From: Cenarchaeum symbiosum A
GTDB taxonomy: Archaea; Thermoproteota; Nitrososphaeria; Nitrososphaerales; Nitrosopumilaceae
Reading direction: 5' to 3'
Length of the DNA stretch: 24,000 bases
Assembly: GCA_000200715.1 (NCBI GenBank)
Contig: DP000238.1
Location: forward strand, 1,574,849 to 1,598,848
Shown here: piece by piece, positions 9,005 through 23,734 of the stretch
Layout of the letters: the number at the start of each line of letters is the position of its first letter
How positions within the stretch are numbered: position 1 is the first letter of the stretch
Notes under the pieces: model-generated
The model's input: only the letters and a program-made list of their open reading frames with translations
What the model was told of the DNA's origin: nothing
Database searches by the model: none
Translations under genes and position numbers: made by a program

Positions 9005-9014
9005 CATATAAATT
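9005..9014 (-). promoter_or_regulatory. TATA box for larC-larE-desulfurase operon
   Basis: The minus strand reads AATTTATATG. The box centre is 27.5 nt upstream of the larC ATG at 8982, implying a leaderless transcript. Confidence 0.5.
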
Positions 9015-9076
9015 GTCGCGGGCGGCCGCGCGGAGACAGCGGTCCCGGCGGGGGCGGATTCCGGTGCATGCACTAC

Positions 9077-9090
9077 ACTAGATTTAATTA
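9077..9090 (+). promoter_or_regulatory. BRE/TATA region of mdh (ACTAGATTTAATTA)
   Basis: The TTTAATTA centre is 26.5 nt upstream of the ATG at 9113. The 9-mer ACTAGATTT starts exactly 36 nt before the start codon, the same as at larB. Confidence 0.55.
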
Positions 9091-9112
9091 CTGATTGCCG
9101 CGGCCGCGCGGC

Positions 9113-10021
9113 ATGATAACCATAATAGGGGCCGGAAAGGTCGGCGGCGACGCAGCCATGTTCTGCGCGCTAAGGAGGCTCGACAGCGAGATTCTACTGC
9201 TCGACATAGTAGAGGGGCTGCCGCAGGGCGAGGCCATGGACATAAACCACATGCTCGCAGAGCAGGGGATAGACACGGAGGTCCGGGGCTCCAACGACTA
9301 TTCCGACATGGAGGGATCCGACATAGTGGTGGTGGTCGCCGGCGCCGGCAGAAAGCCGGGCATGACCAGGATGGACCTGCTCAAGATAAACGCAGGGATA
9401 GTAAAGGGGGTCGTCGAAAAGGTAAAAGAGCACGCCAAGGATTCCATGATAATCCCAGTTACAAACCCCCTTGATCCCATAACCTACATAGCATACAAGA
9501 CGTCCGGGTTTGAAAAAAACCGCGTCTTTGGCATGGGAGGAATGCTGGACCTGTCGAGGTTCAGGCAGTTCATACACGAGGCGACGGGCTACTCCCGGGA
9601 TTCCATCAGGGCTCTAGTCATGGGCGAGCACGGCGAGAACATGCTGCCCCTGCCGAGGTTCTCGACGGTCTCGGGGATACCCCTGCTGTCCCTTATATCC
9701 GCGGAAAAGGCAGCCGAGCTGGTCCGGGATACCAAGAAGGTTGCCGCCAAGGTGATAGAGCTCAAAGGGGCGACGGTCCACGCCCCGGGCAACTCCATAT
9801 CGGCCATGGTGGAATCCATAGTGCGGGACAAAAAGCAGGTGATCCCTGTATCTGCATACCTTGAGGGGGAGTACGGGCACTCTGGCGTTACCATAGGCGT
9901 GCCTGCAGTCATAGGCAGAAAAGGTGTCGAAAAGATAGTGGAGCTTGACCTTGACGGGGCCGAGAAGGAGGCGTTTGACAAGGGCGTTGCAAGCGTCAGG
10001 GACGCGGTATCCGGCGTCTGA
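9113..10021 (+). CDS. mdh: Malate dehydrogenase, LDH-like family
   Basis: [12 protein letters not shown] Rossmann motif. [14 protein letters not shown] has Arg at the substrate-discriminating position, which is Gln in LDHs. [20 protein letters not shown] and the MGEHGENM catalytic His are present. The TTG at 9095 in the track is a 6-codon over-extension. Confidence 0.9.
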
Positions 10022-10033
10022 CTAGATTTTTAT
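10021..10033 (+). promoter_or_regulatory. BRE/TATA region of larB (ACTAGATTTTTAT)
   Basis: The ATTTTTAT centre is 27.5 nt upstream of the TTG at 10057. ACTAGATTT starts exactly 36 nt before the start codon. The box directly follows the mdh stop (10019-10021), and its T5 run could also terminate mdh transcription. Confidence 0.5.
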
Positions 10034-10056
10034 CGGAAAATACAGGTGGCCAAATA

Positions 10057-10860
10057 TTGGAGCTCGACGAGATCCTCGAATCGCTTGCGGCAGGAAGGAT
10101 GGATTCAGCAGAGGCCAGGAGGCTGCTCTCGCTGTATTCCATAGAGAAGATGGGCGAGTTTGCAAAGTTCGACGCGGGCAGAAAGAACCGCAGGGGGATA
10201 CCCGAGGTGGTATACGCAGGCGGCAAGCAGCCAGTAGAGATAAGGGAGATAATCACGGGAGCCCTGAACAGCTCGGATTCTGTCCTGGTATCCAGGATAC
10301 GCGCAGACGACCTGCCTGATATAATGAAATTTGCAGGGGAGGCAGGCCTGCGCACTGACGAGGGAAGAAACTCGTCGTCTGTGCTGTTCTTTAGGAATCC
10401 GCCGCCAGAATACCCCGGAAAGGTGGGGATCATCTGCGCAGGAACCTCGGATATCGGCATAGCAGAAGAGGCCCGCCTCATGTGCAGGGCGATGAACTGC
10501 GGGAGCATCTGCAGCTATGATGTCGGGGTGGCCGGCATGCACAGGCTGTTCCCCGTCCTAAAGGAGATGGTGGCAGGCGATGTGGACGTGATAGTAGCGG
10601 TGGCCGGGATGGAGGGGGCGCTCGCCACGATAGTCTCGTCGATGGTGGACCTGCCGGTGATCGGGGTGCCAAGCTCCGCCGGCTACGGGTACGGAGGTGA
10701 TGGAATAGGGGCCCTTGCGGCCATGCTGCAAAGCTGCACCCTCGGGGTATCAGTAGTCAACATAGATAACGGGATAGGGGCGGGCGCTGTGGCTGCAAGC
10801 ATATGCCGCCGGGTCCGGCTCAGGGGCGGCGCGGAGCCGAGCGCAGATCCGCGCCCGTAA
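10057..10860 (+). CDS. larB: LarB-like (PurE/AIR-carboxylase-related) pyridinium-3,5-biscarboxylic acid mononucleotide synthase
   Basis: Motifs RRGIPEVVYAGGK, IICAGTSDIGIAEEA, DVGVAGMHRL, VAGMEGALATIVSSMVDLPVIGVPSSAGYGYGG. The TTG start is supported by the conserved N-terminal helix ILESLAAGRMDSAEARRLL and by promoter spacing. Confidence 0.85.
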   Translation: MELDEILESLAAGRMDSAEARRLLSLYSIEKMGEFAKFDAGRKNRRGIPEVVYAGGKQPVEIREIITGALNSSDSVLVSRIRADDLPDIMKFAGEAGLRTDEGRNSSSVLFFRNPPPEYPGKVGIICAGTSDIGIAEEARLMCRAMNCGSICSYDVGVAGMHRLFPVLKEMVAGDVDVIVAVAGMEGALATIVSSMVDLPVIGVPSSAGYGYGGDGIGALAAMLQSCTLGVSVVNIDNGIGAGAVAASICRRVRLRGGAEPSADPRP

Positions 10861-11079
10861 TGCCGGTCCGGCCGCTCGCAGGCCGCAAAAGCGCGGCTGT
10901 CCGTATATGGCCTTGTAGGGGGGCGCCCTGCCGTTTTCGACCTTTTCAGTCGTGTAGATGATGTTCTTGGTCTTGTGGTCGATCTTGACCCTGCGGACCC
11001 ACGAGGCCTTTTCCCTGGTCGCACGCTTGAAATTCTCATCCATCCACGTGCCCAGGTCATCTATGTTATAGCCTGCCAT
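10750..11079 (-). CDS. Hypothetical small protein (uncertain); its 3' third overlaps the larB 3' end antisense
   Basis: From the ATG at 11079: MAGYNIDDLGTWMDENFKRATREKASWVRRVKIDHKTKNIIYTTEKVENGRAPPYKAIY. This part has genome-typical codon usage (AAG, GAC, ATC, AGG). The last ~37 codons run antisense through larB and look like junk (R/A/P-rich). No family recognised, and no well-placed TATA box. Confidence 0.3.
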   Translation of the reverse strand: MAGYNIDDLGTWMDENFKRATREKASWVRRVKIDHKTKNIIYTTEKVENGRAPPYKAIYGQPRFCGLRAAGPALRARICARLRAAPEPDPAAYACSHSARPYPVIYVDY

Positions 11080-11247
11080 GCAAGGGGAGGCCGGTAGGAT
11101 ATTCAGGCCTTGGATGGCGCCGGATCCCGCGCCTGCAGGCCACAAAGACCCGTTTTCAGGCGTAACCGGGCAAACCGCCACATCATTTTGGCGGCACAGC
11201 CTGCGATAAAGTGCCAAAGTACGGGGAAGCATGCCATCTCGTAAGCG

Positions 11248-11279: not shown

Positions 11280-12857
11280 TTGGCCGGCAAACGCGTGGTC
11301 CTCACAGCTGATCGCAGTCTGATGACGAACTACAGGGGGAACTTTCTCTATGGGTTTATCGCATGCGGCCCCTACGAGGTGCTGCCCGAGTGGGTCTTTG
11401 ACAAGGTCTTCTGCCCCGCAGTCGAGACGGACCCCCAGACAGGCGAGGCCAAGGTCGCCCAGGTGGGCCTGAGAAGGGTCCAGGGGGCCCTCCGCCAGGG
11501 CTACAAAAAGGAGGAGGTCTTTGTCGCCAACCCGGATTACATAGACAAGCCGATAGGCCCCGACACAAAGGTTGTCGGGATAAACGTGATGGACCCGCTG
11601 GGAATGGCGCCGGTCACCACGACCATGTCGCCTGAAAAGCTCTCCTATGTGGCCATGAAGTTCAAGAGGCTCTGCGCCAGGCTGATACAGCTGAAGAAAA
11701 AGTACGACTTCAAGGTGGTCATAGGCGGCAACGGCGCCTGGGAGCTGGCAAAGCCCGACAGGATGAAGATCCACGGGATAGACACTGTCGTCATAGGCGA
11801 GGCCGACGAGCTGGCAATGGACCTGTTTACCGACCTTGAAAAGGGCGACGCGCCGGAGCTGATGCACTGCTTTGTAAAGAACATACAGAACATACCGGTA
11901 ATAGACGAGCCGACGGTAAACTCGCTGATAGAGGCGATGAGGGGCTGCGGCAGGGGCTGTGACTTTTGCGACGTGAACAAGCGCTCAAAGAAAGACCTCC
12001 CCCCGGACAGGCTGCAAAAAGAGGCCAAGGTCAACCTCGACTATGGATTTGATTCAATCTGGCTCCACTCTGACGAGATGCTTTTGTACGGGTGCGACAA
12101 CCGCGACTTTATACCAAACAGGGACGCCATCACCGATCTCTGGAAGGGCCTCAAGGGGCTTGGCGCCAACTTTATCGGGACCACCCACATGACATTCTCT
12201 GCGGTGGCGGCGGACCCGGAACTGATGCACAACATAGCCACCATCAACCGGCAGCACGAGAACAACAGGTGGCTATCAACCAACCTTGGAATAGAGACCG
12301 TCGCGCCGGACTTGGTAAAAAAGCACCTCGGCGTCAAGACAAGGCCGTTTGCGCCGGAGGAATGGGGCAGCGTGGTCAGGAAGGGCGCCGAGATAATGAA
12401 CGAGAACCACTGGTTCCCTGCTGCGACAATAATCATCGGGTGGCCCGACGAATCCCCGGCGGACGTGCAGTACACGCTCGACATGGTGACAGATTTCAGG
12501 GCCATGGATTTCAGGGGCCTGGTGGCGCCGCTGCTCTACCAGGACTTTAGCGAAAAGAACTCTATGCACTTTGGCAACCTCAACGAGGCGCAGTTTACCT
12601 TGTTCTGGAAGTGCTGGGAGAACAACCTCAAGGTGATAAACGACATCATACCGATAATACTCCGGAACAAGACCTACGGCCCGCCGATGAAGCTCTTCAT
12701 GTACGGGATAATCAAGGCTGGCACCTGGGCGATAATGAGATACCTCAGGGGCCTCTGCAAGGACCTATTCAACGGCAAGATGCCCGACGAGATAGTCGAG
12801 AAATACGCAAGGAGCAGGTCGGTATCCGCCCCCAAGATAGAGACCAAAAAGCTCTGA
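11280..12857 (+). CDS. Radical SAM enzyme with N-terminal Rossmann-like (B12-binding-like) domain
   Basis: CGRGCDFC is the CxxxCxxC radical-SAM cluster motif, in EAMRGCGRGCDFCDV. The N-terminal ~200 aa (VVLTADRSLM..VVGINVMDPLG..KVVIGGNGAWELA..IDTVVIGEAD) resemble the accessory domain of class-B-type radical SAM enzymes. TTG start; the nearby ATG at 11263 is out of frame. Confidence 0.8.
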   Translation: MAGKRVVLTADRSLMTNYRGNFLYGFIACGPYEVLPEWVFDKVFCPAVETDPQTGEAKVAQVGLRRVQGALRQGYKKEEVFVANPDYIDKPIGPDTKVVGINVMDPLGMAPVTTTMSPEKLSYVAMKFKRLCARLIQLKKKYDFKVVIGGNGAWELAKPDRMKIHGIDTVVIGEADELAMDLFTDLEKGDAPELMHCFVKNIQNIPVIDEPTVNSLIEAMRGCGRGCDFCDVNKRSKKDLPPDRLQKEAKVNLDYGFDSIWLHSDEMLLYGCDNRDFIPNRDAITDLWKGLKGLGANFIGTTHMTFSAVAADPELMHNIATINRQHENNRWLSTNLGIETVAPDLVKKHLGVKTRPFAPEEWGSVVRKGAEIMNENHWFPAATIIIGWPDESPADVQYTLDMVTDFRAMDFRGLVAPLLYQDFSEKNSMHFGNLNEAQFTLFWKCWENNLKVINDIIPIILRNKTYGPPMKLFMYGIIKAGTWAIMRYLRGLCKDLFNGKMPDEIVEKYARSRSVSAPKIETKKL

Positions 12858-12978: not shown

Positions 12979-13302
12979 CTAGAGCTTTTCTATGGCGATG
13001 TCCGCTATTGTATTGCGCGTGGGCGTGAGTGATACAAAGTAGCTCTTGTCCGCCCTCTCGATCGTCTCCACCTTTTTGTGGCTCATGGTGGCCAGGTCGA
13101 ACTCGTATATGCCGGGCGCAAGCTCCCCCTTTGCGTATATCATCAGGTAGGATTCCCCCGTGCTCGGGCTGAGCGGTATGAACGACATCACATAGCCCTT
13201 GTACGAGCCGACCGGCATGGTATTCTTCATGGGCGGCGCGGCCGAGGCCAGGAACATAAAGACCTCGTCGATGGTGGCGAACTCTTCATACTCTATATGC
13301 AT
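12979..13302 (-). CDS. Hypothetical cytoplasmic protein (107 aa)
   Basis: Clean ORF with genome-typical composition (MHIEYEEFATIDEVFMFLASAAPP...). It has its own TATA box with the centre 25.5 nt upstream of the ATG. No signal peptide and no recognised family. Confidence 0.6.
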   Translation of the reverse strand: MHIEYEEFATIDEVFMFLASAAPPMKNTMPVGSYKGYVMSFIPLSPSTGESYLMIYAKGELAPGIYEFDLATMSHKKVETIERADKSYFVSLTPTRNTIADIAIEKL

Positions 13303-13323
13303 GGCCGGGGTCGGCTCTGTCGG

Positions 13324-13331
13324 TATAATAA
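13324..13331 (-). promoter_or_regulatory. TATA box (minus strand TTATTATA) for the 107-aa gene
   Basis: The box centre is 25.5 nt upstream of the ATG at 13302. It lies in the 59-nt gap after the upstream gene's stop. Confidence 0.5.
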
Positions 13332-13361
13332 GCTAGGGGATTCTGCGCGATGGTGGTACGA

Positions 13362-14354
13362 TCAGGCGCGGCGGACGGCCCTTGACCGGAGGTAGCCACC
13401 GGTCTTTATGCCCACCAGTGCGGGCGCCGCCACGTACATCCCAAGGTTGAGGGCTATAACGGCCATGCCGAGTCCCAGCACCTGCTGCTCCGAGCCGTCC
13501 TCGGCCAGTGTCATTATTGATAGCGTGGCCAGCATCGGCGTAACTGCCGCCCTGACCATCTCGCGGAATATTGGGCTCTCCCTCTCAAGGTCCGCCACTG
13601 CGGGCGAGAATGCATAGTATACGGTGCTAAACGCGCCCATGAAGGACGAGCCTGATTCTGTCGACATCAGCGTGTTGTCCCTTATCTCCCGGAGGTACTG
13701 CACCTGCGGTGCAAGCTCCGAGCCGTACGCTGCAGTTGCGATCAGGCACCCGCCTCCGCGTCCTGAGTCACGCTCGGGGACGCAGCTGCCGTCCTGCAGA
13801 ATGGTGCCGGCCCCGCATTGTACCTCAGGTTCAGGCTCCGGTTCTGGCTCGGGCTCTGGTTCAGGTTCTGGCTCGGGTTCGGGCTCCGGCTCGGGCTCTG
13901 GTTCAGGTTCTGGCTCGGGTTCCGGCTCTGGCTCGGGCTCTGGTTCTGGTTCCGGCTGTGCAGCCGCCCCGCCCAGATATTCAAAGAAGCCCACATGGCT
14001 CTGGGCTCCATATTGGACCTTGATCTCATAGTCACCACCCTGCTTCCACTGCGGGCCCCCGGCCACCAGGGTCTTCTCATACGAGCCGTCCGACCCCGGT
14101 ACGATCTGGTCGATGCCCACTATTGTGCCGAGGGGATCGACGATTATTATGGTGACGGCCTGGCTATAGTCGCCCAGGGTCTTTATCTGTCCTGATATTG
14201 TAACCGTATCCTTGTCAGAGTAGATGGGCTTGTCCGTTATAATCGAGATGGGCAGCCCGGAAGCGCCGGTCTGTGCGGCCACCGGCGCGGCCATGCCGTA
14301 TGATAGTATCGATGCGGCCAGAATAGCCAATGCCAGCCTACCGGACGTTTTCAT
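13362..14354 (-). CDS. Secreted/anchored protein: shared N-module + (PE)22 linker + Cys-motif C-terminal domain with hydrophobic tail
   Basis: Signal peptide [28 protein letters not shown]. The N-module is homologous to the PEFG-paralog N-modules. Next come 22 Pro-Glu repeats, then [12 protein letters not shown], then [28 protein letters not shown]...YYAFSP. The C-terminus has two hydrophobic stretches and an RSRAVRRA tail. Confidence 0.88.
13824..13955 (-). repeat. Hexanucleotide-periodic coding repeat, 22 x (CCN GAR) = (Pro-Glu)22
   Basis: Counted unit by unit from the sequence. Synonymous codons vary between units. There is a 35-nt exact internal duplicate at 42-nt offset (13846-13880 = 13888-13922). 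Confidence 0.95.
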
Positions 14355-14382
14355 TATTCTAGAGTTTACGAAAGTACGATAG

Positions 14383-14391
14383 TATTTATGT
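14383..14391 (-). promoter_or_regulatory. TATA region (minus strand ACATAAATA) for the (PE)22 gene
   Basis: Same 9-mer as upstream of PEFG paralog 2. It ends 29 nt upstream of the ATG at 14354, implying a leader of a few nt. Confidence 0.4.
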
Positions 14392-14415
14392 ATTCAGCAG
14401 GGAAAAGCCTGATTC

Positions 14416-17400
14416 TCATGTGCGGATCAATCCCCTTCCGGCAAGAAACTCCATCGACTGCAAAAACTCGTCGTCTGTGATCATCCCGTCAGCCCACCAG
14501 CGGGCGCTGTCCCTTGTCCAGTCCGGCACGCGCTGCAGCCCCTCCCCCGCGGGCACATCCACCACCCCGGTCCTGGCAAGGTATTCCAGCCCGTCGAGAA
14601 ACTCGCCGTCTGATATGATGCCGCCGGACCACCACCGGGCGCTGTCCCGCACCCACCCGGGTATCCGCGGTGCATCCAGTGTAAACGAGGCGGAGCCCAC
14701 GTGCTCCCCGAGATACTCTACATCGGCAGTGTATTCCCCGGGGGGCGACTCGTGGCCGAGCATTAGCACGGCCCTGTACCTGCCCGAGTCCGTTACGGAG
14801 ATGCCAAACGTGCTGACGGAACCATCAGGCGAGTTTAGAAATATGGAGACAGGCTCGCCCCTTCTCTGCCCCGCAAGCGAGCCCTCTACTGTAACCTCCG
14901 CGGTTCCCCCGTATGCAGGCTGCAGCAGCGTCCGGGGGTCGGCAGCAGGGGGCACCTCGCCGGACCTGGGCTCCGGGGATGCGCCTGCCTGCTGGGATGC
15001 GCCGGCCTGCGGCGGTGCGCCAAGCCCGAATATGTTGGGGTTGCCCGATGAATCCCTTGCGTCGTGATACCTTGCATCAATGTTGCCGCCGGCAGGCGAG
15101 ATCAGCCTGTCCCCGTCCTTGCTGCATATCCATGACGGCATCTTGAAGCTGCCCTCGAATATCCCGGTGCCGGGCCCAGTCTCCACCAGCGAGAAGCCGC
15201 TTGCCGCAAGCCCCCCGTGCTCTACACCATCGACAGTGCAGCGCCTGTACCTTTCGCCGTTGATTATAACCTCCAGCAGGATCCCGCCGTCTGGCGACCC
15301 CACCGTGTCCACATACGGGGACGCGGGATCGTTTACAGTCCCATAGACCTCCAGCGTATCGTGGCTCCTGTTCAGGTCCGGATCCTCGAGTATTATGGTG
15401 ACCGGCCTGCCGAACCCGTAGCTGTTAGAGTCGGTCCTGACGCTGCCCGAGTGCACTTCGGCCTCGCGCGCCTCCGACTGCCCGGTGGATATGCCCGTCC
15501 TGTCAAGATCAGAGTAAGTTATCACCACGTCGTCCATGGCCCTGCCGCCGCCCAGGAACCTGACGTCCTCGTCTATCGTGCGCAGCGAAGATACAAGGCC
15601 TGGGTCGCCCGTGCCGCCGGGCCCCGGCACGACATACTCGAGCGTCCCCGTGAATACGCCCGGCGAGTCCCGCTCCTCTTCAAGCTCAAACCTGTACACT
15701 GCGTTGTTGACATCCCTGCCGTTTTGTTCCCCAAAGGAGAAGAGATCCAGGATGATAGGCAGCGGCCCCTCCAGCCCCGATGGAGCGGCCCCCCCAAAGT
15801 CCACCACCATATAGGCAGTCCCCGACGAATCGGCGGCTGATGCTGCAGCATCCTCATCTATCTGTACAAGGCCGCGCGGGGACCCAAGGCCTTCTGCCAG
15901 CAGTACACCCGACGGGTCCGCGGGATCCCCAAAGGCCAGGTGGACAGAGGCCCTGCCCAGTGCCCTCCCCATCGAGGTAAAATCATAGTTGAGCCAGTTG
16001 CTCCCTTGGTTATCGGATACCAGCAGGGACCGCAGTGCGCCTGAAGAATACCCCGTCTTTATCGAGAGCCCCTCTGTCCCCGCGGGGACGCCGTCTACAA
16101 CAAGCCGCCCCGAGCCGTCTTTCGCCTGTCCGTGCCCTGCCCGCTCGCCGGTGGCCGGCCCCCGGGAGCCAAAGAACGATACATCCGAGGCCCGCTCGAG
16201 TGTAAGCGGGCTGCCGATGTACATTGTTGGTAGGACGGACGATGCGCGGTCGGCCCCGAGGCTGTCCCGCTCCCTGGAGCTGGCGTCCTGGTCCGCGTCT
16301 GTTACTATAACGTCCGCCCTCGTGCCGGGCCGCGGCACGCCATCCCGGTATTCAACAGAAATAGACGCATCGGTCGGGCCCGTGGGCACCGAGGCTGCCT
16401 CGTCGTTGTACCGTATGGATCCCGCGAGGCCCCTGGGCGCGTCGGGGCCCGTCCCTATTACGGATGTTGACGACGAATCATAGCTGACAAAGACGCCCGA
16501 GCTTGGGCGCGTCTCGACCAGTGTGACTATCCCCCCGAACTCGTTAATCCCGTCGGTAACCGAGACATCCGGCTGGTGGCGGTTTGTCTTTAGGACCAGC
16601 ACCCCGCCGGGGTCCACCTCGAGCCGGCCGTTGTCCTCAAAGCCTAACCGCCCGAGGCTCCCCTCAAGGTCGACCAATCCCGGGCCCCCGTTGCCGGCGT
16701 CCGAGCCCCTGTCAGTATAGGCCTGGTAGAACACCCCGCTGGATGCAAACGTCCACGAGTCCTCGTCTGTAGGATCCTGGTTGAGCTGCATGTCGTGCAC
16801 AGTAACAAAGACCTCCGCCCCCGCCGGATACGTGGCCCTGTCAAGCTCGACGGATATTCCCTCCATCTCGCCGTACTCGATATCCTCCTGCTGAACGCCG
16901 CCCGCCCTGTTGTACTTTACCTCCACGTCGCGAAACGAGAAGAGCTGTATAATCGGCCACATATCCGGATCAATTCCTATCTGGCCCGGCGGTGCGCCCG
17001 ACGCCGAGCTCGGGGAGCTGGCCCTTCTGACCACATTGTTGATGACAGGGCCGTCAGCTGATCCCGTGCACTCGCCCAGCGGGCCCTGCCCGTCGGAGGC
17101 GCCCTCCAGGCCCCCCCGGGGGACGGCAACAGCCTCCGTGTCAGAAAAGTCCGCGCCCAGAACGCCTGCTGCAGTATCGGGCCCGCAGAACTCGCCAAAG
17201 TCCAGGCTCTCGCCTGCCGCTCCGATTGCGGCCTGGTCTGCCGCCCTTGCAGCCCCCGCATGCGCAAAGTACGCATACCAGGCTCCGTCAGAAGACTGCA
17301 CCATCCGCAGGTCCCGGCCGTTTACCGTCACGTCAGGCTCCCCCACGGTGCCGCTAGTATCCGATATTTCAGTATCCCGCACGACCACCTCGATTACCAT

Positions 17401-17535
17401 GGATCCTGAGAATATCCCGTCGGCCGACACATGCAGGTTCTCGGCCAGCGCCTCGCCTACCGCGGGCGCGGCAAGCAGCAGCATAACGGCCAGTATCTTG
17501 GCATCCAACAGAACAGTTCCGTCTGCGGCGCTCAA
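14416..17535 (-). CDS. Large secreted surface protein (1039 aa) with repeated acidic beta-domain motifs, one copy of the shared module and two C-terminal Trp-rich repeats
   Basis: Single uninterrupted ORF with an N-terminal hydrophobic signal (..LLDAKILAVMLLLAAPAVGEALA/E). Starts are a TTG at 17535 (weak TCATAATC box at 17561-17568) or a TTG at 17508. The protein is rich in D/S/G/T and has no cytoplasmic-enzyme motifs. Confidence 0.85.
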   Translation of the reverse strand: MSAADGTVLLDAKILAVMLLLAAPAVGEALAENLHVSADGIFSGSMVIEVVVRDTEISDTSGTVGEPDVTVNGRDLRMVQSSDGAWYAYFAHAGAARAADQAAIGAAGESLDFGEFCGPDTAAGVLGADFSDTEAVAVPRGGLEGASDGQGPLGECTGSADGPVINNVVRRASSPSSASGAPPGQIGIDPDMWPIIQLFSFRDVEVKYNRAGGVQQEDIEYGEMEGISVELDRATYPAGAEVFVTVHDMQLNQDPTDEDSWTFASSGVFYQAYTDRGSDAGNGGPGLVDLEGSLGRLGFEDNGRLEVDPGGVLVLKTNRHQPDVSVTDGINEFGGIVTLVETRPSSGVFVSYDSSSTSVIGTGPDAPRGLAGSIRYNDEAASVPTGPTDASISVEYRDGVPRPGTRADVIVTDADQDASSRERDSLGADRASSVLPTMYIGSPLTLERASDVSFFGSRGPATGERAGHGQAKDGSGRLVVDGVPAGTEGLSIKTGYSSGALRSLLVSDNQGSNWLNYDFTSMGRALGRASVHLAFGDPADPSGVLLAEGLGSPRGLVQIDEDAAASAADSSGTAYMVVDFGGAAPSGLEGPLPIILDLFSFGEQNGRDVNNAVYRFELEEERDSPGVFTGTLEYVVPGPGGTGDPGLVSSLRTIDEDVRFLGGGRAMDDVVITYSDLDRTGISTGQSEAREAEVHSGSVRTDSNSYGFGRPVTIILEDPDLNRSHDTLEVYGTVNDPASPYVDTVGSPDGGILLEVIINGERYRRCTVDGVEHGGLAASGFSLVETGPGTGIFEGSFKMPSWICSKDGDRLISPAGGNIDARYHDARDSSGNPNIFGLGAPPQAGASQQAGASPEPRSGEVPPAADPRTLLQPAYGGTAEVTVEGSLAGQRRGEPVSIFLNSPDGSVSTFGISVTDSGRYRAVLMLGHESPPGEYTADVEYLGEHVGSASFTLDAPRIPGWVRDSARWWSGGIISDGEFLDGLEYLARTGVVDVPAGEGLQRVPDWTRDSARWWADGMITDDEFLQSMEFLAGRGLIRT
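14419..14664 (-). repeat. Two tandem 37-aa repeats at the C-terminus of the 1039-aa protein
   Basis: IPGWVRDSARWWSGGIISDGEFLDGLEYLARTGVVDV, then PAGEGLQR, then VPDWTRDSARWWADGMITDDEFLQSMEFLAGRGLIRT. The repeat is also visible in the DNA (CCACCAGCGGGCGCTGTCCC vs CCACCACCGGGCGCTGTCCC). Confidence 0.9.
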
Positions 17536-17557
17536 ATAGTTGTCGCAGGAATTGCAC

Positions 17558-18742
17558 TCAGATTATGATGCTAGTCAGGTACATGACGGCCATCCCCGTG
17601 GCTATGCCCGCCGCCACGGGGGCCCCCGAGAGACCCACCCCGTCCTGGCCGCGGATCCACCGGAGCACCACCACCATCACCTGGAGTATGGCCCCCGCCC
17701 CCACGGATAAAAAGATCACCGCCGAAAACGGCGAGTAGAAAAAGCCCCCTATCCACGCGCCAAGTATCGCAGGGGCGCCCGCCATCAGCCCCAGGGCGGC
17801 AAGCATCGGCACCGTGGCTCCCGCCCTGGACGCGGGCGCAGCTATCGCCATTCCTTCGGTCGTATTATGCAGGGCAAAGCCGACTATCAGAAAGGCCCCC
17901 AGCGCGGCCTGCCCGAGGCCGATTGCCGCCCCTATGGCCAGCCCCTCGCCGAGATTGTGCAATCCTATCCCTACTGCGATCATCAGGCCTACGGCCATCG
18001 GCTTTTGCAGCCCCGACTTGCCTGCAGCAGCAAGCCTGCCCCCTGCATAGTACAGGGCCAAAAACGAGAGCGTAGTCACTGTAGCTATCAGCAATAACCC
18101 GTTAAAGCTCTCCGATAGGTTCTCATCGGCGACCTCGGCCGCCTCCTCTATCGCGTCTATCCCCAGGAACAAGAGCAGGCCCACCGTAATGGATAGAAAG
18201 AACGCATAGTGCCGCCCGCTGATCCTCCGTATGAACGGCAGCCACGCCAGCCCCAGCATGACGGGGACTATCCCCACGTAGGTCCCTATGAGAGCAAGCG
18301 AGCCCAGCAGCTCCAAGCCCGCCTCCGGGGCGGGGGCCGCCGCCTCGACCTCCCTCTCAAAGCGCGTGCCGTCATCTATTGTAAGGCCTATCCGGTACGG
18401 CTCGGCCTCGTTCCACGGAAACGGTATCCTCACCACTGCTGTCTCGAACCTTTCGAGATGCTTGTCCGGCTCTATCGCGGCAGGCTGTATCCTGTCGTTG
18501 ACATCAGCTATCACCACGTCGACGGGCATGGGCCCCGTATTCCTTACTGTCGCGCGTATCTCGCCATCTACAAAGTCGACCTGCTCGATCGTAATCTCCG
18601 GGAGGGGCGTGCCGAGGCCCGCAAGGCCCGAGCCGGGCCCCGCAAGGTAGGCAATTACGACCGCCACCGCGGCAAACGGCACCAGCCCGCTGGCGGCGGT
18701 CCTTGCCCTACGCGCCCTGACGGACTCCATATCCGACGCCAT
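17558..18742 (-). CDS. ZIP-family (ZupT-like) divalent metal permease with N-terminal extracytoplasmic domain
   Basis: Signature motifs GIGLHNLGEGLAIG and GFALHNTTEGMAIA sit in a polytopic hydrophobic C-terminal ~260 aa. The N-terminus has one TM segment followed by a ~120-aa beta-rich domain. The start (ATG at 18742, or at 18730) overlaps the MCO 3' end by 35 or 23 nt. Confidence 0.85.
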   Translation of the reverse strand: MASDMESVRARRARTAASGLVPFAAVAVVIAYLAGPGSGLAGLGTPLPEITIEQVDFVDGEIRATVRNTGPMPVDVVIADVNDRIQPAAIEPDKHLERFETAVVRIPFPWNEAEPYRIGLTIDDGTRFEREVEAAAPAPEAGLELLGSLALIGTYVGIVPVMLGLAWLPFIRRISGRHYAFFLSITVGLLLFLGIDAIEEAAEVADENLSESFNGLLLIATVTTLSFLALYYAGGRLAAAGKSGLQKPMAVGLMIAVGIGLHNLGEGLAIGAAIGLGQAALGAFLIVGFALHNTTEGMAIAAPASRAGATVPMLAALGLMAGAPAILGAWIGGFFYSPFSAVIFLSVGAGAILQVMVVVLRWIRGQDGVGLSGAPVAAGIATGMAVMYLTSIII

Positions 18743-19766
18743 CGTCCGGGTCGGGCCCCTCGGCCAGGAATATCCCCGACCAGCCCTTCTCGGAGAACTC
18801 TACCTTGTGCGCGTGAAAGAGGTACTTGCCGGGAAAATCATAGCTAAACTCCATTATCCCCCTTTCCGTCTGGGATAGCGTTATCATGTCGGTGTAAAAT
18901 GAAGGGACGGTGTCGGTCCCCGTCGGGTAATAGTGGAACAGGTTCCCGTGCAGGTGGAAGTTGTTTATCGGGTCGAACTCCAGCATGTTGACCACGTAGA
19001 GCCGTATCTTTTCGCCGACTGCTATCTGTATCGGGTGGTGCTGGTAGTAAAATGGAATCGTGTTGGCGCCGTAAAGGTTGTTCTCCGTGTCAAAGTCTGT
19101 ATCCAGGCCGTTGAGCACCATCACCATTTCGTCTGCTGGCGGCCTCTCCTCCTTGGGGTCCACTATGTACACGCCGTACAGGCCGTGCACTATGTGCTCC
19201 TCGAGCGGCATGACATGGCAGTGGTACGGGTGCACGCCCACGGGCTCTGCCCTCCATTCGTATGTAAAGCGCCCGCCCCCGGGCCCCACGGGCTCAAAGA
19301 CACCGTCGAACTCGGGCCTGTGTATTCCATGGAAATGCATCGTGTGCTCCTTCTCGCCGTTGTTGATGAAATGAATCCTGACCAGATCGCCCTGGGTGGC
19401 CCGGATGGTGGGCCCGGGCACGGTCCCGTTGAATGTCCAGACGTTGTAGAAGACCCCCGGTGCCACCTCCATCACGCCGTCGTCCTCGGCTATTATCGTA
19501 AACTCGCGCAGTGTCGTCCCGTCTGGCAGCATCGAGGTGCGCCCGTAATTGAACTCCCGCAGAAACTCCATCGGGTCAAACTCTACTGTGCTCTCCGTGT
19601 ACAGCGGGTCAAGGACGTCTCCTGCCGTCCGGACCACCGCCCCCGTGTGTGTAACGAATACCGTCTCTTCTTTCTGGGCGCTCGACATGCCGGGCGCGGC
19701 CAGCAAAAGCCCCCCGGCAAGGCCGATCGCCGTCAACGACAGCAGCATGGCCCGTGATCTATACAA
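18708..19766 (-). CDS. Two-domain multicopper oxidase (cupredoxin x2), secreted
   Basis: Four HxH copper motifs: HFH in EHTMHFHG, HCH in PYHCHVMPLEEHIVHGLYG, HLH in NFHLHG, HAH in YLFHAHK. The T1 Cys is present. Signal peptide (TTG)YRSRAMLLSLTAIGLAGGLLLAAPGMSSA/Q. The TTG start at 19766 is supported by a TATA box 26 nt upstream; the ATG at 19748 is the alternative. Confidence 0.85.
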   Translation of the reverse strand: MYRSRAMLLSLTAIGLAGGLLLAAPGMSSAQKEETVFVTHTGAVVRTAGDVLDPLYTESTVEFDPMEFLREFNYGRTSMLPDGTTLREFTIIAEDDGVMEVAPGVFYNVWTFNGTVPGPTIRATQGDLVRIHFINNGEKEHTMHFHGIHRPEFDGVFEPVGPGGGRFTYEWRAEPVGVHPYHCHVMPLEEHIVHGLYGVYIVDPKEERPPADEMVMVLNGLDTDFDTENNLYGANTIPFYYQHHPIQIAVGEKIRLYVVNMLEFDPINNFHLHGNLFHYYPTGTDTVPSFYTDMITLSQTERGIMEFSYDFPGKYLFHAHKVEFSEKGWSGIFLAEGPDPDDGVGYGVRQGA

Positions 19767-19787: not shown

Positions 19788-19796
19788 AAATATAAG
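19788..19796 (-). promoter_or_regulatory. TATA box (minus strand CTTATATTT) of the MCO-ZIP(-giant) operon
   Basis: The box centre is 26 nt upstream of the TTG at 19766. Confidence 0.5.
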
Positions 19797-19851
19797 ATTT
19801 AGCCTAGGCTAACTTTTTTGCCCTGTGCTAAATTTCCTGCCACCCGGCAAG

Positions 19852-19882: not shown

Positions 19883-20383
19883 ATGCGCAAGGCCGCCCTC
19901 ATGCTGACGGTCGTGGGAGGGATCATGGTAGCCGGGATAGCACTCTCGTTCTTCGGCTCCTCGATAGTCGTGGACAGCCTAGTGCAGGCCACCGCGAACA
20001 TAGGCGGGGGGGACGAGATGGAGGTCAGCGCAAGGCTAGACCCCGGCGTAAGCGGGGAGGGCTTTTACGTCGTCCAGACGATGCAGTTTGAAGAGGGCAT
20101 GGTCCGGGCCTCCGTCAAGGACCCCTCGGGGGCGGAAGTGGCAGGCGGAATGGTCGGATCCGATTCCCACCAGGAGCAGTTCGATCTGAGGGGCGGCGGA
20201 AACTATACCCTGGTAATAGAGAACGGAGGGGGCCAGTCTGATGTGGTGGGCGCCATCGGGCACGTGCCCGGCGAGGCCATTGTGGCAGTCGGGGTGACGG
20301 GATCCTACCTGTTGATAGCGGGCCTCGTGGGAATGGCGGGCCTGGCAGTATACATAGTAAAGAGCAGGAACCGCCCTAGTTGA
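19883..20383 (+). CDS. Hypothetical bitopic/hairpin membrane protein (N- and C-terminal TM helices, ~110-aa external domain)
   Basis: MRKAALMLTVVGGIMVAGIALSFFG (TM1), then a Gly-rich beta-like domain, then AIVAVGVTGSYLLIAGLVGMAGLAVYIV (TM2) and KSRNRPS. It has its own promoter. No family recognised. Confidence 0.65.
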   Translation: MRKAALMLTVVGGIMVAGIALSFFGSSIVVDSLVQATANIGGGDEMEVSARLDPGVSGEGFYVVQTMQFEEGMVRASVKDPSGAEVAGGMVGSDSHQEQFDLRGGGNYTLVIENGGGQSDVVGAIGHVPGEAIVAVGVTGSYLLIAGLVGMAGLAVYIVKSRNRPS

Positions 20384-20678
20384 GGTAGCTGTCCATCTTT
20401 GTCAGGCCGTCTATCGCGGACTGGAAGTTCTTGTCGTCCTCGACTATTCCGGCTATCTTCTCCTTGTCGACAGAATAGGCAACCGGGTCTTTTGTCTCTG
20501 TGACAAAGCCGTGCTGTATCAGAAATTCAAGCCTGTTCTTTATCTCGGCGGGCTCAAGATCAAGCTCCTTTGAGAGATGGGCCTCGTCCCGGGGCCCGTC
20601 CTCGAGCTCCGCCAGTATCGGCGCCACATCAGGGTCGAATAGCTGCTCGAATGCCTTTTCAGTATCTGCCGGATCCAT
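20376..20678 (-). CDS. Small, strongly acidic winged-helix (wHTH) protein
   Basis: ILAELEDGPRDEAHLSKELDLEPAEIKNRLEFLIQHGFVTETKDPVAYSV fits a helix-turn-helix plus wing pattern. I count ~25 Asp/Glu against ~10 Lys/Arg. The start lies 3 nt after the vWA stop (TAA-AAC-ATG). Confidence 0.65.
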   Translation of the reverse strand: MDPADTEKAFEQLFDPDVAPILAELEDGPRDEAHLSKELDLEPAEIKNRLEFLIQHGFVTETKDPVAYSVDKEKIAGIVEDDKNFQSAIDGLTKMDSYLN

Positions 20679-20681: not shown

Positions 20682-22109
20682 TTACCACGAATGCCTTTTG
20701 GTAAATACCTTTCTCAGGCCGGATACATAATCTGCCACGAGCACCCTGTCCATGTCGCCGCGCCTTACGTGGTATGACCGCCCGCCCATCTGCCTTTCAA
20801 GTCTTGCCACGTATTCGAGCAGCTCGTCTTCGTCGCTGACCACTATAGAATCAACGGCAACGCCCTCCCTTGAGCACGCGGCCGCCTCTGCCGCTGTGCG
20901 CCGCTCTATTATCTGGTCGATCTTTTTGTACCTGTAGCACAGGTAGACCAGCCTGTCGGGGTCCGCGTCGAGACGCAGGTTCCTCTCTTCTTTGATCCTC
21001 CCTATTACCTCCCGCTGGGGCGAGTAGAATGTAGAGTACGGCTTGACTGATATTATCTCCGCCTTCTGGGCTTCGTCTCCGACAAAACATGCGCTCGGCT
21101 GGCCGTCGGTTATCAGGACTATCCTCCTGTTCTGGGCCCCGCTCCTCCGGAGGAGGCGGCGTGCGAGCCCCAGCGCGGCCTGGTAGTTTGTATAATGTAA
21201 AAGGCCGTCGTTTGCGTCGTATGTGCGGAGAAACGGTATGTCCCGCGGGTCGACCTCTGATGCCAGCGACGCAAAGCCGACGACAAATACAGGGTCGTCG
21301 GGAAAGAACCTGCTGTTCAACATGTACAATACCCACAGGGCCCTCTTTGCGGCCTCGATCCTGCTCGTGCCGTCCTGCAGCTTTGTCTTCATTGTCGAGC
21401 TGAGGTCTATACAGTATGCGACAGCAGTCCTGACGTCATCAAGGGACTCGAATTCCTCGAGGTCCTGACGCTCCAGTTCCAGGGGAAAGCCCACGGGCCC
21501 CTCCCGGGAGAGCCGCAATACCGCGTTGAGCACGGTCTGCGGGACGCACAGGTTCCCCGCGTCCCCGCCGGGCTCGATCATGCGGGTGCCATCGGAGAGT
21601 ATCGAGCCCTCGCCGGGGCGCACAGTCCCGTGCAGGCCCCCCTCCCCGGCGCCCAGCCTTGACATCACGTCGCGGAGCATGCGGTCGCCTATCTCAAGAA
21701 ACGCCTTGCGCGTAAGCCAGTTCTTTGAATCGCGCAGGTATCCAGCCTCCCGGAGCATCTCCGTATAGGCTGCACCGCCGGCTGACTCCCCGGCATCCGG
21801 CCCGGACTCTGCATCGTCGGCGGCATCCGCGCCCGGCTCTTCTGTGCCCTGTTTTCCGTCGGCGGCATCCTGTCCGCCAGACTGGCCGTCCTGTTGAACG
21901 TCCGCGCCCGCGGGGGCCCCGAGTTTTCCTCGCATTATGGATTCAAGGTCCTCCACGGGGACCGACCTCTCCTTGAGTGCCTGCGCGCCAAGCACGCCGA
22001 GCGCCTCCTGGAGATCGTCGGCAGCACGCCCGCCCCGGCCGGGGCCCTCCCCGCCGCTGCTCGCTGAATAGACCGAGCGCCTGGTGTCACGCGGGCGAGT
22101 ATCCGGCAT
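20682..22109 (-). CDS. von Willebrand factor type A (vWA) domain protein with acidic low-complexity N-terminal linker
   Basis: MIDAS-type motif AYCIDLSSTMKT. vWA core FVVGFASLASEV ... RRIVLITDGQPSA. The N-terminal Gly/Asp/Ala/Gln-rich tract resembles ChlD/CobT-type linkers. The start overlaps the ATPase gene by 23 nt. Confidence 0.85.
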   Translation of the reverse strand: MPDTRPRDTRRSVYSASSGGEGPGRGGRAADDLQEALGVLGAQALKERSVPVEDLESIMRGKLGAPAGADVQQDGQSGGQDAADGKQGTEEPGADAADDAESGPDAGESAGGAAYTEMLREAGYLRDSKNWLTRKAFLEIGDRMLRDVMSRLGAGEGGLHGTVRPGEGSILSDGTRMIEPGGDAGNLCVPQTVLNAVLRLSREGPVGFPLELERQDLEEFESLDDVRTAVAYCIDLSSTMKTKLQDGTSRIEAAKRALWVLYMLNSRFFPDDPVFVVGFASLASEVDPRDIPFLRTYDANDGLLHYTNYQAALGLARRLLRRSGAQNRRIVLITDGQPSACFVGDEAQKAEIISVKPYSTFYSPQREVIGRIKEERNLRLDADPDRLVYLCYRYKKIDQIIERRTAAEAAACSREGVAVDSIVVSDEDELLEYVARLERQMGGRSYHVRRGDMDRVLVADYVSGLRKVFTKRHSW

Positions 22110-23703
22110 CGCGCCTCTCCAGCATGCGGGGCTTTGTATGGCAGAGGCCCTCGAGGAGCCCCTCTAGAAGCACGGCGCGCAGCCCGTCGTGATCCTGTCC
22201 TATGTCGGCCGCCTTGGCCTGTATGCCGTGCTCTCCGAGATCCGCCACCAGCTTTGCCTGCGCTTCTAGCGCCATCTCGAGGCGGGATTCGAGCAGCTTG
22301 GACAGGAGCGGGTGGTCTGCCATCTGGCGTTCATACGGGTCTGCCCCGCCGGACCACTGCATCTCCTGCGAGGACCTGAACGTCCCGGCGCCAAACTCGT
22401 CCTTGATCAGCTGCAGCTCTTCATCTACTGTTCCCTCGAGCAGCCCGAGGCACGCATCCCCAACTGCGGCATCCATTATCTCGGCAAATACGCGCGCCCT
22501 GTTCTCTACGGTATCGTCGAGCTCGGTGAGCTCAAACTTGGCCACCTGTTCTAGCGCATGAAAGTCGGACAGGCGGGGCGCCGGCAGGGCGCCGGCCGCG
22601 GTAGGCCTTGTCCGCTCCGCCTCGGATACGAGTATCTCGAGCCCGTGTATGCCGGTACGTGCGCTCACCCCCCTCTCCTGGTTTATCTGCCCGCTGTTTC
22701 GCATCCCGGCTATCACCCCAGCCAGCGCCCTGAGCGGCAACTCTGCAACCGCGGCAGGCGGCAGGCGGGCCTCCTGCATTATGATCATCATCTCGTCGTG
22801 GATGGTGGGGGGATAGTGCGTGTGGACGTGGCTTGCCAGGCGGTCAAGGAGCGGCTCTATCACCCTGCCCGAGTGGGTATAGTCGACGGGGTTTGCCGTC
22901 GCAAAGAGCATGGTCCTCGGCTCAAAGTACACGGGGTACGGGCCGGTGGTAAACCTGCCCTCCTGGAGCACCGAGAGCAGGGCGACCTGCTTGCGCGGAT
23001 CAAGGACGGGCAGCTCGTCTATGCAGAATATGCCGTGCTTTGCCTGCATCAGCTGGCCCGGCGAGTACGAGTCTATCCTGTACATTTCAGTGCCCTTTTT
23101 TGCAACCTTGACTGCGTCTATGCTGCCGACAAGGTCCCTCACTGTTGTATCGGGGGTGGCAAGCACGTACCGGAACCTGCGCGCGCCGCCGAGCCACTCG
23201 ACGGGAGTCTCGAGTCCCCTCTCACGCAGCACCTCCAGGCTCTCGGGGCTAACATGGAAGACCGGGCGGGAGGATCCTCCGGTTCCTTCCAATGCGTCCG
23301 CAAGGTCGGCTGCCGGCAGGTCCATGGGGCAGTCGTTGGTTGCGCTGTTTCGAATCACGGGGATGGGCGAGAGGAGGTTCTCGGCTATCGAGCGGACCAG
23401 CCTTGTCTTTGCCTGGCCCATCTGCCCTATGAGGAAGGTGTCGTGCCCCGACAGCAGGGCCCTGTCAAGCGCGGGTATTACATCGTCATCAAAGCCGATT
23501 ATCCCGGGGTACGCGCCCCTGCCCATGGATAACAGGTTGCGCCGGACCTGCTCCCGGGAGGAGGGCAGCTTGTAGTTTGCATCCAGCAGGCCGCCGAGTG
23601 TAGTGATATCGCCATATTCCTCGGGGGTGCCCGCCCGGACCTCCTTGTATGCAGGCTCTGCAGAGTAGCTACTCTCCACCATGGATCGCACATCGGGGGC
23701 CAA
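22087..23703 (-). CDS. AAA+ ATPase of the MoxR / ChlI (Mg-chelatase-like) class
   Basis: Walker A FLIGQMGQAKTRL, Walker B GIFCIDELPVLD, sensor region QVALLSVLQEGRF, MLFATANP, EPLLDRL. Two starts are possible. The TTG at 23703 fits the TATA box at 23727-23734 (27.5 nt). The ATG at 23682 (MVESSYSAEP) is the conservative alternative. The track start at 23994 adds ~100 implausible Pro/Cys-rich residues. Confidence 0.82.
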   Translation of the reverse strand: MAPDVRSMVESSYSAEPAYKEVRAGTPEEYGDITTLGGLLDANYKLPSSREQVRRNLLSMGRGAYPGIIGFDDDVIPALDRALLSGHDTFLIGQMGQAKTRLVRSIAENLLSPIPVIRNSATNDCPMDLPAADLADALEGTGGSSRPVFHVSPESLEVLRERGLETPVEWLGGARRFRYVLATPDTTVRDLVGSIDAVKVAKKGTEMYRIDSYSPGQLMQAKHGIFCIDELPVLDPRKQVALLSVLQEGRFTTGPYPVYFEPRTMLFATANPVDYTHSGRVIEPLLDRLASHVHTHYPPTIHDEMMIIMQEARLPPAAVAELPLRALAGVIAGMRNSGQINQERGVSARTGIHGLEILVSEAERTRPTAAGALPAPRLSDFHALEQVAKFELTELDDTVENRARVFAEIMDAAVGDACLGLLEGTVDEELQLIKDEFGAGTFRSSQEMQWSGGADPYERQMADHPLLSKLLESRLEMALEAQAKLVADLGEHGIQAKAADIGQDHDGLRAVLLEGLLEGLCHTKPRMLERRDAGYSPA

Positions 23704-23726
23704 CAGGCACACCCGCCAGTACGGGA

Positions 23727-23734
23727 ATTTATAA
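23727..23734 (-). promoter_or_regulatory. TATA box (minus strand TTATAAAT) of the ATPase-vWA-wHTH operon
   Basis: This is the only strong AT box upstream of the operon. Two GC hairpins (GGCCC..GGGCC at ~23741-23756 and GGGCC-TGTGTGT-GGCCC at ~23766-23782) lie further upstream. Confidence 0.45.

Follow-up and report, generated by a model that had tools for sequence, protein, structure and literature searches.

A known MCO1–ZIP pair and a newly recognized S-layer-protein paralog are probably separate units of a frozen gene order in Cenarchaeum symbiosum A

Ammonia-oxidizing archaea (AOA) encode a two-domain multicopper oxidase (MCO), 'MCO1', together with a ZIP-family permease, a pair that has already been described in comparative genomics of these organisms (PMC7785015, PMC5817080, PMC5767755) and that the same three papers trace to a definition by Kerou et al. 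2016. Copper was proposed as the metal of the pair, its two genes were modestly induced in N. viennensis under Cu limitation (log2 fold change 0.81 and 1.33) and an analogy with Fet3p–Ftr1 was drawn (all PMC7785015). At the cell surface, the closest described proteins are the surface-layer (S-layer) protein of Nitrosopumilus maritimus, NmSLP (Nmar_1547; PDB 8C8K–8C8R), the AOA S-layer being reported to concentrate cations (PMC11153153), and the SlaB homologue of C. symbiosum (A0RXH0, ABK78037.1). Here we analysed a 24-kb stretch of the Cenarchaeum symbiosum A genome (the window), in which an MCO1–ZIP pair is followed on the same strand by a large paralog of NmSLP, a membrane-anchored protein with a (PE)22 run and a 107-aa protein. 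We think it probable that these five genes are neighbours in a frozen gene order, making up at least four transcription units, that is, four adjacent units and not one machine or assembly. Within this block, the MCO–ZIP pair was known before; what is newly recognized is the S-layer paralog family, together with its SlaB-like neighbour.

An open reading frame (ORF) listing of the window contained the five same-strand ORFs that an initial annotation had placed in the block, as follows.

18708–19766, minus strand: two-domain multicopper oxidase of the AOA 'MCO1' type, with signal peptide; start at TTG 19766 or ATG 19748.
17558–18742, minus strand: ZIP-family divalent-metal permease with an extra N-terminal transmembrane (TM) helix and an extracytoplasmic beta-sandwich; likely start ATG 18730.
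14416–17535, minus strand: secreted S-layer-protein paralog, here called the giant; longest ORF 1039 aa, 100% identical to ABK78200.1.
13362–14354, minus strand: PE330, a 330-aa membrane-anchored stalk protein with signal peptide, head, (PE)22, Cys-loop, CFI-box-CTERM, TM helix and basic tail.
12979–13302, minus strand: p107, an acidic protein of 107 aa that lacks both a signal peptide and a TM helix; at ~74% identity among the most conserved proteins of the region.

For comparison, one genome per species was scanned and the best 80 loci were kept, all of them from Nitrosopumilaceae (none from Nitrososphaerales or Nitrosotalea); five further loci were added from contig look-ups. Gene presence across the 80 loci was scored by tblastn, most absences in the resulting table being contig ends, and gene arrangements were counted in the 47 loci with at least 6 kb downstream of ZIP. 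Promoters were compared in upstream regions anchored at start codons.

In the pair itself the window does not differ from the described AOA pair: a two-domain MCO lies immediately upstream of ZIP and overlaps it. The MCO matches Cu-oxidase_3 (1e-22) and Cu-oxidase_2 (4.5e-21), both above the Pfam cut-offs, and carries four HxH motifs (HFH, HCH, HLH and HAH), which supply the T1 and trinuclear Cu ligand motifs and confirm the two-domain assignment made earlier. An ortholog was found in 79 of the 80 loci (~75% identity), and identities of 72–79% to Nitrosopumilaceae orthologs that adjoin ZIP suggest its placement in lineage MCO1. For the permease, a 20-ortholog alignment points to a conserved 'ME' at ATG 18730 as the start, and databases, in which a C. 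symbiosum A protein with 100% identity to this ZIP is named 'divalent heavy-metal cation transporter', likewise use a later start than that of the 394-aa ORF. Here the protein scores below the cut-offs of Pfam PF02535 and NCBIfam ZupT, PF02535 being recorded on homologues. It is nonetheless a ZupT/GufA-type ZIP, as had been supposed, with an eight-helix core and a binuclear HNxxEG centre: two HNxxEG motifs are present (GLHNLGEG and ALHNTTEG, at residues 262 and 292, respectively), and the core of its AlphaFold2 model (predicted local distance difference test (pLDDT) 85) matches BbZIP in fold and in binuclear-site motifs (5tsa; Foldseek E 7.7e-6, TMt 0.67). With Fet3p–Ftr1 the window pair shares the logic of an extracellular oxidase that may act with a membrane permease; its permease is a ZIP, not Ftr1.

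MCO and ZIP overlap in the window by 35 nt counted from ATG 18742, or by 23 nt from ATG 18730, which agrees with the 23–35 nt first reported. Across 82 loci, the distance from the MCO stop to the ZIP start ranged from −32 to 0 nt (median −14), and overlap was counted in 82/82. Overlap of stop and start suggests translational coupling, and the two genes are probably a tight, co-transcribed pair. The initial annotation had guessed that this pairing was not novel, and the three papers cited above prove it right. In some loci, second-copy MCO–ZIP pairs stand alone, without the other block genes, and second copies were also reported in PMC5817080. Nitrosotalea genomes reportedly have neither MCO1 nor the native ZIP. 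Separately, in a 1.2-Mb circular genome (locus L084), the ZIP (10001–11170) is 44% identical to that of the window, compared with 72% for the MCO, 67% for p107 and 83% for a neighbouring radical-SAM protein, which suggests that ZIP alone diverged rapidly or was replaced there.

The junction between ZIP and the giant is where the idea of a longer operon has to be weighed. The elements concerned are the following.

17533–17551, minus strand: conserved promoter-like element of the giant, TTCCTGCGACAACTATTTG, 19 nt, resembling a transcription factor B recognition element (BRE) and TATA box (CGACAAC..TATTTG) and containing TTG 17535.
L003 11179–12558, L081 11156–12514 and L083 11152–12501, minus strand: cation-diffusion-facilitator (CDF) gene of three related loci, convergent with ZIP and overlapping the ZIP stop by ~4 nt.

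MCO, ZIP and giant had been taken for a single transcript, with 22 nt between the last two. This gap is valid only for the longest giant ORF, from TTG 17535, and that codon lies inside the conserved 19-nt element, so the separation does not stand as described. The GenBank product is 1022 aa long and begins at ATG 17484; the true start is probably ATG 17484 or TTG 17508, so that the spacer is ~50–73 nt and contains a promoter-like element. Upstream of their giant genes, L081 and L082 carry TTCCTGCGACAACTATTTG unchanged and L083 carries it with one mismatch, in each case within the CDF/giant intergenic region ~55 nt before the giant start codon, and a related CGACAACATTATTTG is found ~20–40 nt before that codon in Nitrosopumilus and Nitrosotenuis. 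By its sequence, the element looks like the BRE/TATA region of the giant and like a remnant of an ancestral CDF/giant divergent intergenic region.

In most Nitrosopumilaceae (32 of the 47 loci counted, or 32 of the 39 that keep downstream block genes), ZIP and the giant are parted by an opposite-strand 450-aa CDF gene (PF01545 plus ZT_dimer). The gene is missing from C. symbiosum A, L024, L053, L066, L071, L075 and L084. Because L081 and L083, the closest relatives of C. symbiosum (ZIP 70–72% identical), have it, its loss in C. symbiosum is derived; by deleting the CDF gene and keeping the proximal promoter of the giant, C. symbiosum A brought ZIP and giant close. The promoter-like element at 17533–17551 and the CDF gene that intervenes in most relatives do not fit a single MCO–ZIP–giant operon, and the operator of the MCO promoter (below) is absent from the giant promoter; the single transcript is therefore not upheld. 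More generally, genes that are closely packed in a single genome may bear the scar of a deletion and need not form an operon. As a side observation, a ZIP importer and a CDF exporter are encoded tail-to-tail in most members of the family.

Some ZIP-to-giant read-through is possible in C. symbiosum and, if it occurs, would be a by-product of the CDF deletion. In a stronger form, the giant of C. symbiosum A would now be expressed largely by read-through from MCO–ZIP, in effect an operon of three genes that is confined to this lineage and had no functional meaning ancestrally. Such an outcome would be compatible with the four-unit explanation, and we rate it as rather unlikely. It would suit the derived loss of the CDF gene, the mere 22–73 nt between the ZIP stop and the giant start with no T-rich terminator, and a GC-rich spacer with a TATA-like element weaker than the boxes usual in AOA. 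It is harder to reconcile with the perfect conservation of the 19-nt element in relatives whose proteins are only ~50–72% identical, since this conservation implies that a promoter or regulatory site of the giant itself is still under selection, or with the spacers of roughly 100–300 nt kept by CDF-less relatives such as L071 and L075 among the loci sampled.

Conserved elements were also found upstream of the other units, together with a candidate regulator.

19788–19796, minus strand: TATA-like box CTTATATTT of the MCO–ZIP unit; equivalent TTTAAATA or TTTATATT at the same position in relatives.
19799–19831, no strand assigned: tandem operator-like sites, the perfect palindrome TTAGCCTAGGCTAA (19799–19812) and the degenerate TTAGCACAGGGCAA (19818–19831), with centres 19 nt apart and abutting the TATA box.
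14382–14395, minus strand: conserved promoter box GAATACATAAATAC of PE330, near-invariant across 49 loci.
13323–13336, minus strand: conserved promoter box CTAGCTTATTATAC of p107, with CTAGGTTATTATAC in relatives, ~25–30 nt before the ATG.
20376–20678, minus strand: 100-aa winged-helix protein with weak ArsR/SmtB, Lrs14, DUF4423 and HTH_5 similarity.

At 19788–19796, the sequence CTTATATTT agrees with the TATA box predicted there, and the AT-rich, promoter-like boxes of PE330 and p107 (consensus of the latter CTAG(G/C)TTATTATAC), conserved in relatives, support the earlier proposal that these two genes have promoters of their own. MCO promoters across the loci contain two, sometimes three, tandem copies of the palindrome. 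Within −170 to +20 of the MCO start, TTAGN6SYWAA occurred 137 times where 2.3 were expected (~60-fold), with sites at 66 of 73 loci, and the motif is also present at second-copy MCO–ZIP pairs. Elsewhere it occurred in 0/48 giant, 0/49 PE330 and 2/39 p107 promoters, the p107 figure being background level, and a search for an operator common to the MCO promoter and those of the giant, PE330 or p107 found none. The palindromic operator pair, a small observation, is new here. Its candidate binder, and thus the candidate regulator of the MCO–ZIP promoter, is the winged-helix protein, whose helix-turn-helix (HTH) gene lies upstream of MCO–ZIP in 58 of the 80 loci; the L081 ortholog has a weak PF01022 match. 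Operator and adjacent winged-helix protein provide a testable handle on the regulation of MCO1–ZIP, a long-standing copper-acquisition candidate in AOA.

The giant, next in the block, is paralogous to the S-layer protein of N. maritimus. Direct comparison with NmSLP (PDB 8c8k_A) gave a phmmer E of 6.6e-75 over three stretches, residues 20–459, 588–748 and 769–833 aligning to NmSLP 24–527, 712–879 and 927–1000, so that homology extends over giant residues ~20–833 (window 15037–17478) and the first ~1000 residues of NmSLP. The AlphaFold2 model is mostly beta (pLDDT 71), and its top Foldseek matches are S-layer structures (8c8l, 8c8m and 8c8r at E ~1e-59; 8c8n with TMt 0.73 and 34% identity). With NmSLP the giant shares a signal peptide, a series of Ig-like domains and a strongly acidic composition, and the two are 34% identical over its first ~420 residues. 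The differences lie mainly towards the C-terminus. NmSLP comprises 1734 aa and the giant 1039 aa; the C-terminal, membrane-proximal domains are lacking in the giant, as are the ten-domain architecture (~1700 aa) and the steep negative gradient towards the C-terminus, its net charge of −83 being spread evenly. NmSLP has 17 resolved glycans, whereas the C. symbiosum giant has one N-X-S/T sequon. The missing domains are replaced at its C-terminal end by an MG2-like domain and two WW repeats.

14695–14922, minus strand: MG2/Ig-like beta-sandwich module of the giant, residues ~872–947 (strands 861–954 in the model).
14419–14661, minus strand: two C-terminal helical 'WW' repeats of the giant (P.W.rdsArWW..g.I.D.eF), residues 959–990 and 1004–1039, helix hairpins in the model.

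PF01835 (MG2) is precomputed on several giant orthologs. The WW repeats have no Pfam or NCBIfam match and also stand C-terminally in unrelated secreted ORFs of L021, L037 and L074; they form a cassette that recurs at the C-termini of secreted AOA proteins and belongs to no curated family.

GenBank and RefSeq instead name the giant a 'secreted periplasmic Zn-dependent protease' or 'peptidase', and it could in principle be such an enzyme, or a generic adhesin unrelated to the S-layer. WW repeats are common to other secreted proteins, some of them possibly enzymes, and large adhesins feature in AOA biofilm studies (PMC12448741). We nevertheless judge this extremely unlikely. The giant has no Pfam or NCBIfam family, and no peptidase domain matched in either database even at E≤10; the protein is acidic, it contains no HExxH and its sole hydrophobic segment is the N-terminal signal peptide, which leaves the protease names unsupported. 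About 800 of its residues align to NmSLP and S-layer structures dominate the fold search. The result corrects an annotation spread across Nitrosopumilaceae, in which proteins called 'peptidase' or 'Zn-dependent protease' are S-layer-protein paralogs. Identity with 'SlaA1', which Supplementary Table 1 of von Kügelgen et al. gives for several Nitrosopumilus species with charges of about −65 to −70, was also considered and rejected, as the accessions differ. The giant orthologs AFS80209.1 (N. koreensis; also WP_014962598.1), AJM91949.1 (N. piranensis) and ABK78200.1 are not among the SlaA, SlaA1 and SlaA2 accessions in the searchable part of the S-layer supplements, and because these accessions do not match, the ortholog group appears, as far as that part extends, uncatalogued there. 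The supplements of the glycoproteomics paper contain no data on a giant ortholog.

A giant ortholog was found in 50 of the 80 loci. It was deleted in at least eight lineages that keep MCO–ZIP and PE330 (L034, L048, L050, L061, L069, L070, L077 and L084), and short remnants survive in L034 (5568–5831, a C-terminal WW repeat) and in L023 (12602–12865, the N-terminal 80 residues), which indicates recent, independent losses.

PE330, present in 49 of the 80 loci, follows the giant at a constant spacing (median 61 nt). Its head (residues ~42–119, window 13998–14231) has a weak MG2 match (E 0.0015), and the exact (PE)22 run that had been read from the window is there (residues 134–177, window 13824–13955). 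Residues 203–274 are a CFI-box-CTERM domain (NCBIfam NF041770, 78.7 bits against a cut-off of 40); a C-terminal TM helix is predicted at 291–317, followed by a basic tail, and the net charge is −27. Across 43 orthologs, conservation is highest in the C-terminal domain and the linker is variable (PE, PT, PK or poly-P, 12–56 aa); the head contains no conserved His, Met or Cys. While passing the NF041770 cut-off, PE330 is unlike that class in pairing the domain with a proline-rich spacer, and the function of the 'CFI-box' is not described in the searchable literature.

The head of PE330 is homologous to residues 23–101 of A0RXH0, the N-domain of the SlaB homologue in C. symbiosum (hhalign 91%, E 1.1e-6). 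Both proteins thus begin with a homologous domain, continue into an extended stalk, are anchored in the membrane at the C-terminus and adjoin an SLP-type gene; SlaB has a coiled-coil stalk, a simple TM anchor and several heads, whereas PE330 has a (PE)n or poly-P stalk, a CFI-box-CTERM anchor and one head. PE330 and the giant are not significantly similar by BLASTP (E 2.6), but at profile level its head matches giant residues 872–945 (hhalign 95%, E 3e-8). The initial annotation had described a head module common to the two surface proteins: the sharing holds, and the position does not, because the giant's copy lies near the C-terminus. The two are probably a minor canopy-and-anchor envelope pair, a putative function for both.

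The ZIP permease had been credited with an unusual extracytoplasmic N-terminal domain of ~120 aa. The domain exists, the model having a TM helix at 2–30 and an extracytoplasmic beta-sandwich at 46–128; it is not unusual, being conserved in thousands of homologues from AOA and bacteria. In thousands of Nitrosopumilaceae proteins it is ~65% conserved, and it is found as well in full-length homologues at 35–45% identity, many of them bacterial; a profile built from distant ZIP representatives retrieves mostly bacterial proteins of Gemmatimonadales type. Asp, Glu, Asn, Arg and Trp are its invariant residues in the 20-ortholog alignment, which contains no conserved His, Met or Cys in the domain. 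A role as a PCuAC/CopC-type Cu chaperone was considered and rejected: the fold resemblance is weak (E 0.06–0.2; 6p16 and 6tpb both E 0.058) and there is no ligand motif.

ZIPs with the same N-domain occur in bacterial or mobile-element cassettes of the order MCO > ZIP > small cupredoxin (L086 1955–4639, L091 4870–8414 and L092 4761–8779). In L091 and L092 a DtxR-family regulator (Fe_dep_repress plus FeoA) comes after the cupredoxin; upstream of the L092 cassette are an ArsR-type HTH and an HMA P-type ATPase, and VIT1 is nearby in L091. Surface proteins of the giant or PE330 type are not present at the MCO > ZIP > cupredoxin cassettes of distant archaea or bacteria. This suggests that MCO–ZIP is an ancient autonomous module. 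As the bacterial cassettes adjoin DtxR-type Fe/Mn regulators, Fe or Mn, and not Cu, may be what is transported, a caution for the copper reading of the pair. Relative to the known pair, these cassettes, with their cupredoxin and DtxR-like regulator, and the ancestral convergent CDF partner are new.

With the parts identified, the arrangement across the family could be weighed. After ZIP, the 47 loci had CDF, giant and PE330 in 32 cases, giant and PE330 without CDF in 3, CDF and PE330 without giant in 3, CDF only in 1 and none of the three in 8, mostly second paralogous MCO–ZIP pairs. Several points weigh against a division into separate units. The order MCO–ZIP–(CDF)–giant–PE330–p107 is kept across Nitrosopumilus, Nitrosarchaeum, Nitrosotenuis and Cenarchaeum; the initial annotation had named free variation of the downstream genes as the outcome that would speak against a link, and instead all five are syntenic across Nitrosopumilaceae. 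In L084, MCO > ZIP > PE330 > p107 < radical SAM survives despite a completely different upstream flank, and survival through this rearrangement points to a possible functional tie of MCO–ZIP with PE330 and p107. Furthermore, the window has no archaeal terminator-like T-run after the ZIP stop; we infer promoter function, operator function and the absence of read-through from sequence conservation; and the MG2-like head is too widespread among the envelope proteins of AOA to tie the giant to PE330 on its own.

A functional reading of the five-gene synteny is in turn weakened by the intervening CDF gene, the losses of the giant, the solo MCO–ZIP pairs and the collinearity of unrelated flanks. The entire 24-kb window is collinear with L081 and L083, and the genes for ribosomal proteins S13 and S4, GlmS, the MoxR-AAA/VWA pair, radical SAM, LarB, Mdh and LarC, all unrelated, are equally syntenic.

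These observations bear directly on the proposal first made for the block, that MCO1, the ZIP N-domain, the giant and PE330 form one extracellular assembly for capture, oxidation and uptake of Cu, co-transcribed or co-regulated, in which the surface proteins concentrate the metal or hand it over. The synteny of the five genes in most Nitrosopumilaceae and the linkage of PE330–p107 to MCO–ZIP in the rearranged L084 agree with it, as do the strongly acidic giant and PE330, considering the cation-concentrating S-layer of AOA (PMC11153153), and the faint PCuAC/CopC likeness of the ZIP N-domain. However, the genes have separate conserved promoters and the operator is restricted to the MCO; most genomes have a CDF gene, on the opposite strand, between the permease and giant genes; and the giant was lost repeatedly while MCO–ZIP was kept, the pair also occurring as second copies and in bacteria without such surface proteins. 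Neither the PE330 head nor the widespread ZIP N-domain has a conserved His, Met or Cys, and in the ortholog alignment of the giant there is no conserved His, its conserved Cys and Met forming no obvious metal-site motif. With the flanks equally syntenic, we regard a single Cu assembly as very unlikely; the proposal is not supported.

The explanation that we prefer, neighbouring but separate units, would work as follows. The metal module would be an MCO1–ZIP bicistron transcribed from the TATA box at 19788–19796 and controlled through the two tandem operators, which the adjacent 100-aa winged-helix protein may bind; ancestrally, the module would have included the convergent CDF exporter directly after ZIP. 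Following the literature, the secreted two-domain MCO would change the redox state of the metal in the pseudoperiplasm, and the ZIP with its extracytoplasmic beta-sandwich would then import a divalent cation. The predicted envelope pair, giant and PE330, each with its own conserved promoter, would make up two further units. The ~1020-aa giant would keep the outward-facing N-terminal Ig-like domains of NmSLP and swap the C-terminal domains for the MG2-like module and WW repeats, acting as a minor or alternative S-layer-associated subunit, and PE330 would be a membrane-anchored stalk or spacer in the pseudoperiplasm, an arrangement that would mirror the canopy-and-anchor logic of SlaA and SlaB. 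The gene for p107, with its own promoter, would be a separate unit. If the paralog does insert into or under the lattice, it bears on the anchoring and variation of the cation-sieving S-layer. One could further imagine the giant and PE330 as a specialised, minor envelope structure, for instance an acidic funnel inserted in the S-layer and carried above the membrane on a ~13-nm proline-rich stalk, which would work with the MCO1/ZIP/CDF module in gathering trace-metal cations and passing them across the pseudoperiplasm, so that the conserved linkage would be functional and the units yet separately transcribed; we consider this highly improbable.

The remaining observations concern p107, the flanks and the other carriers of the PE330 head, which are listed here.

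19883–20383, plus strand: 166-aa bitopic membrane protein, divergent from the MCO, with TM helices at 3–34 and 130–161 and a beta-rich middle.
3170–3973, 4038–4901 and 4879–5823, plus strand: three tandem PEFG-CTERM (TIGR04296) proteins with the PE330-type head (hidden Markov model (HMM) E 1e-19 to 1e-24); the last two overlap by 23 nt.

The three PEFG-CTERM proteins match the PE330-head HMM with far better scores than the giant does. Upstream of the MCO, the 166-aa membrane protein was found in 58 of the 80 loci at an identity of only ~29%. Further out, a MoxR-like AAA_5 ATPase gene (22087–23994, minus strand) overlaps that of a VWA-domain protein (20682–22109, minus strand), and the HTH gene follows after 3 nt; this AAA/VWA pair occurs in Cenarchaeum-like, Nitrosotenuis and some other loci and is not upstream of the HTH gene in most Nitrosopumilus. 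On the other side of the block, p107, for which Pfam, NCBIfam and the PDB gave no match, is a conserved cytoplasmic protein. It is convergent with the radical-SAM gene at 11280–12857, which is 86%-conserved and of the B12-binding type; each of the two was found in 37 of the 80 loci, and in nearly all relatives they share 6 nt at their 3′ ends, compared with a distance of ~120 nt in the window. Beyond it, positions 5820–10860 encode a LarB-like AIRC protein (10057–10860), a malate/lactate dehydrogenase (9095–10021), a LarC Ni_insertion protein (7765–9069), a LarE-like PP-loop ATPase (6974–7768) and a class-V aminotransferase (5820–7256), which together with the radical-SAM neighbour look like an AOA nickel-pincer-cofactor cluster.

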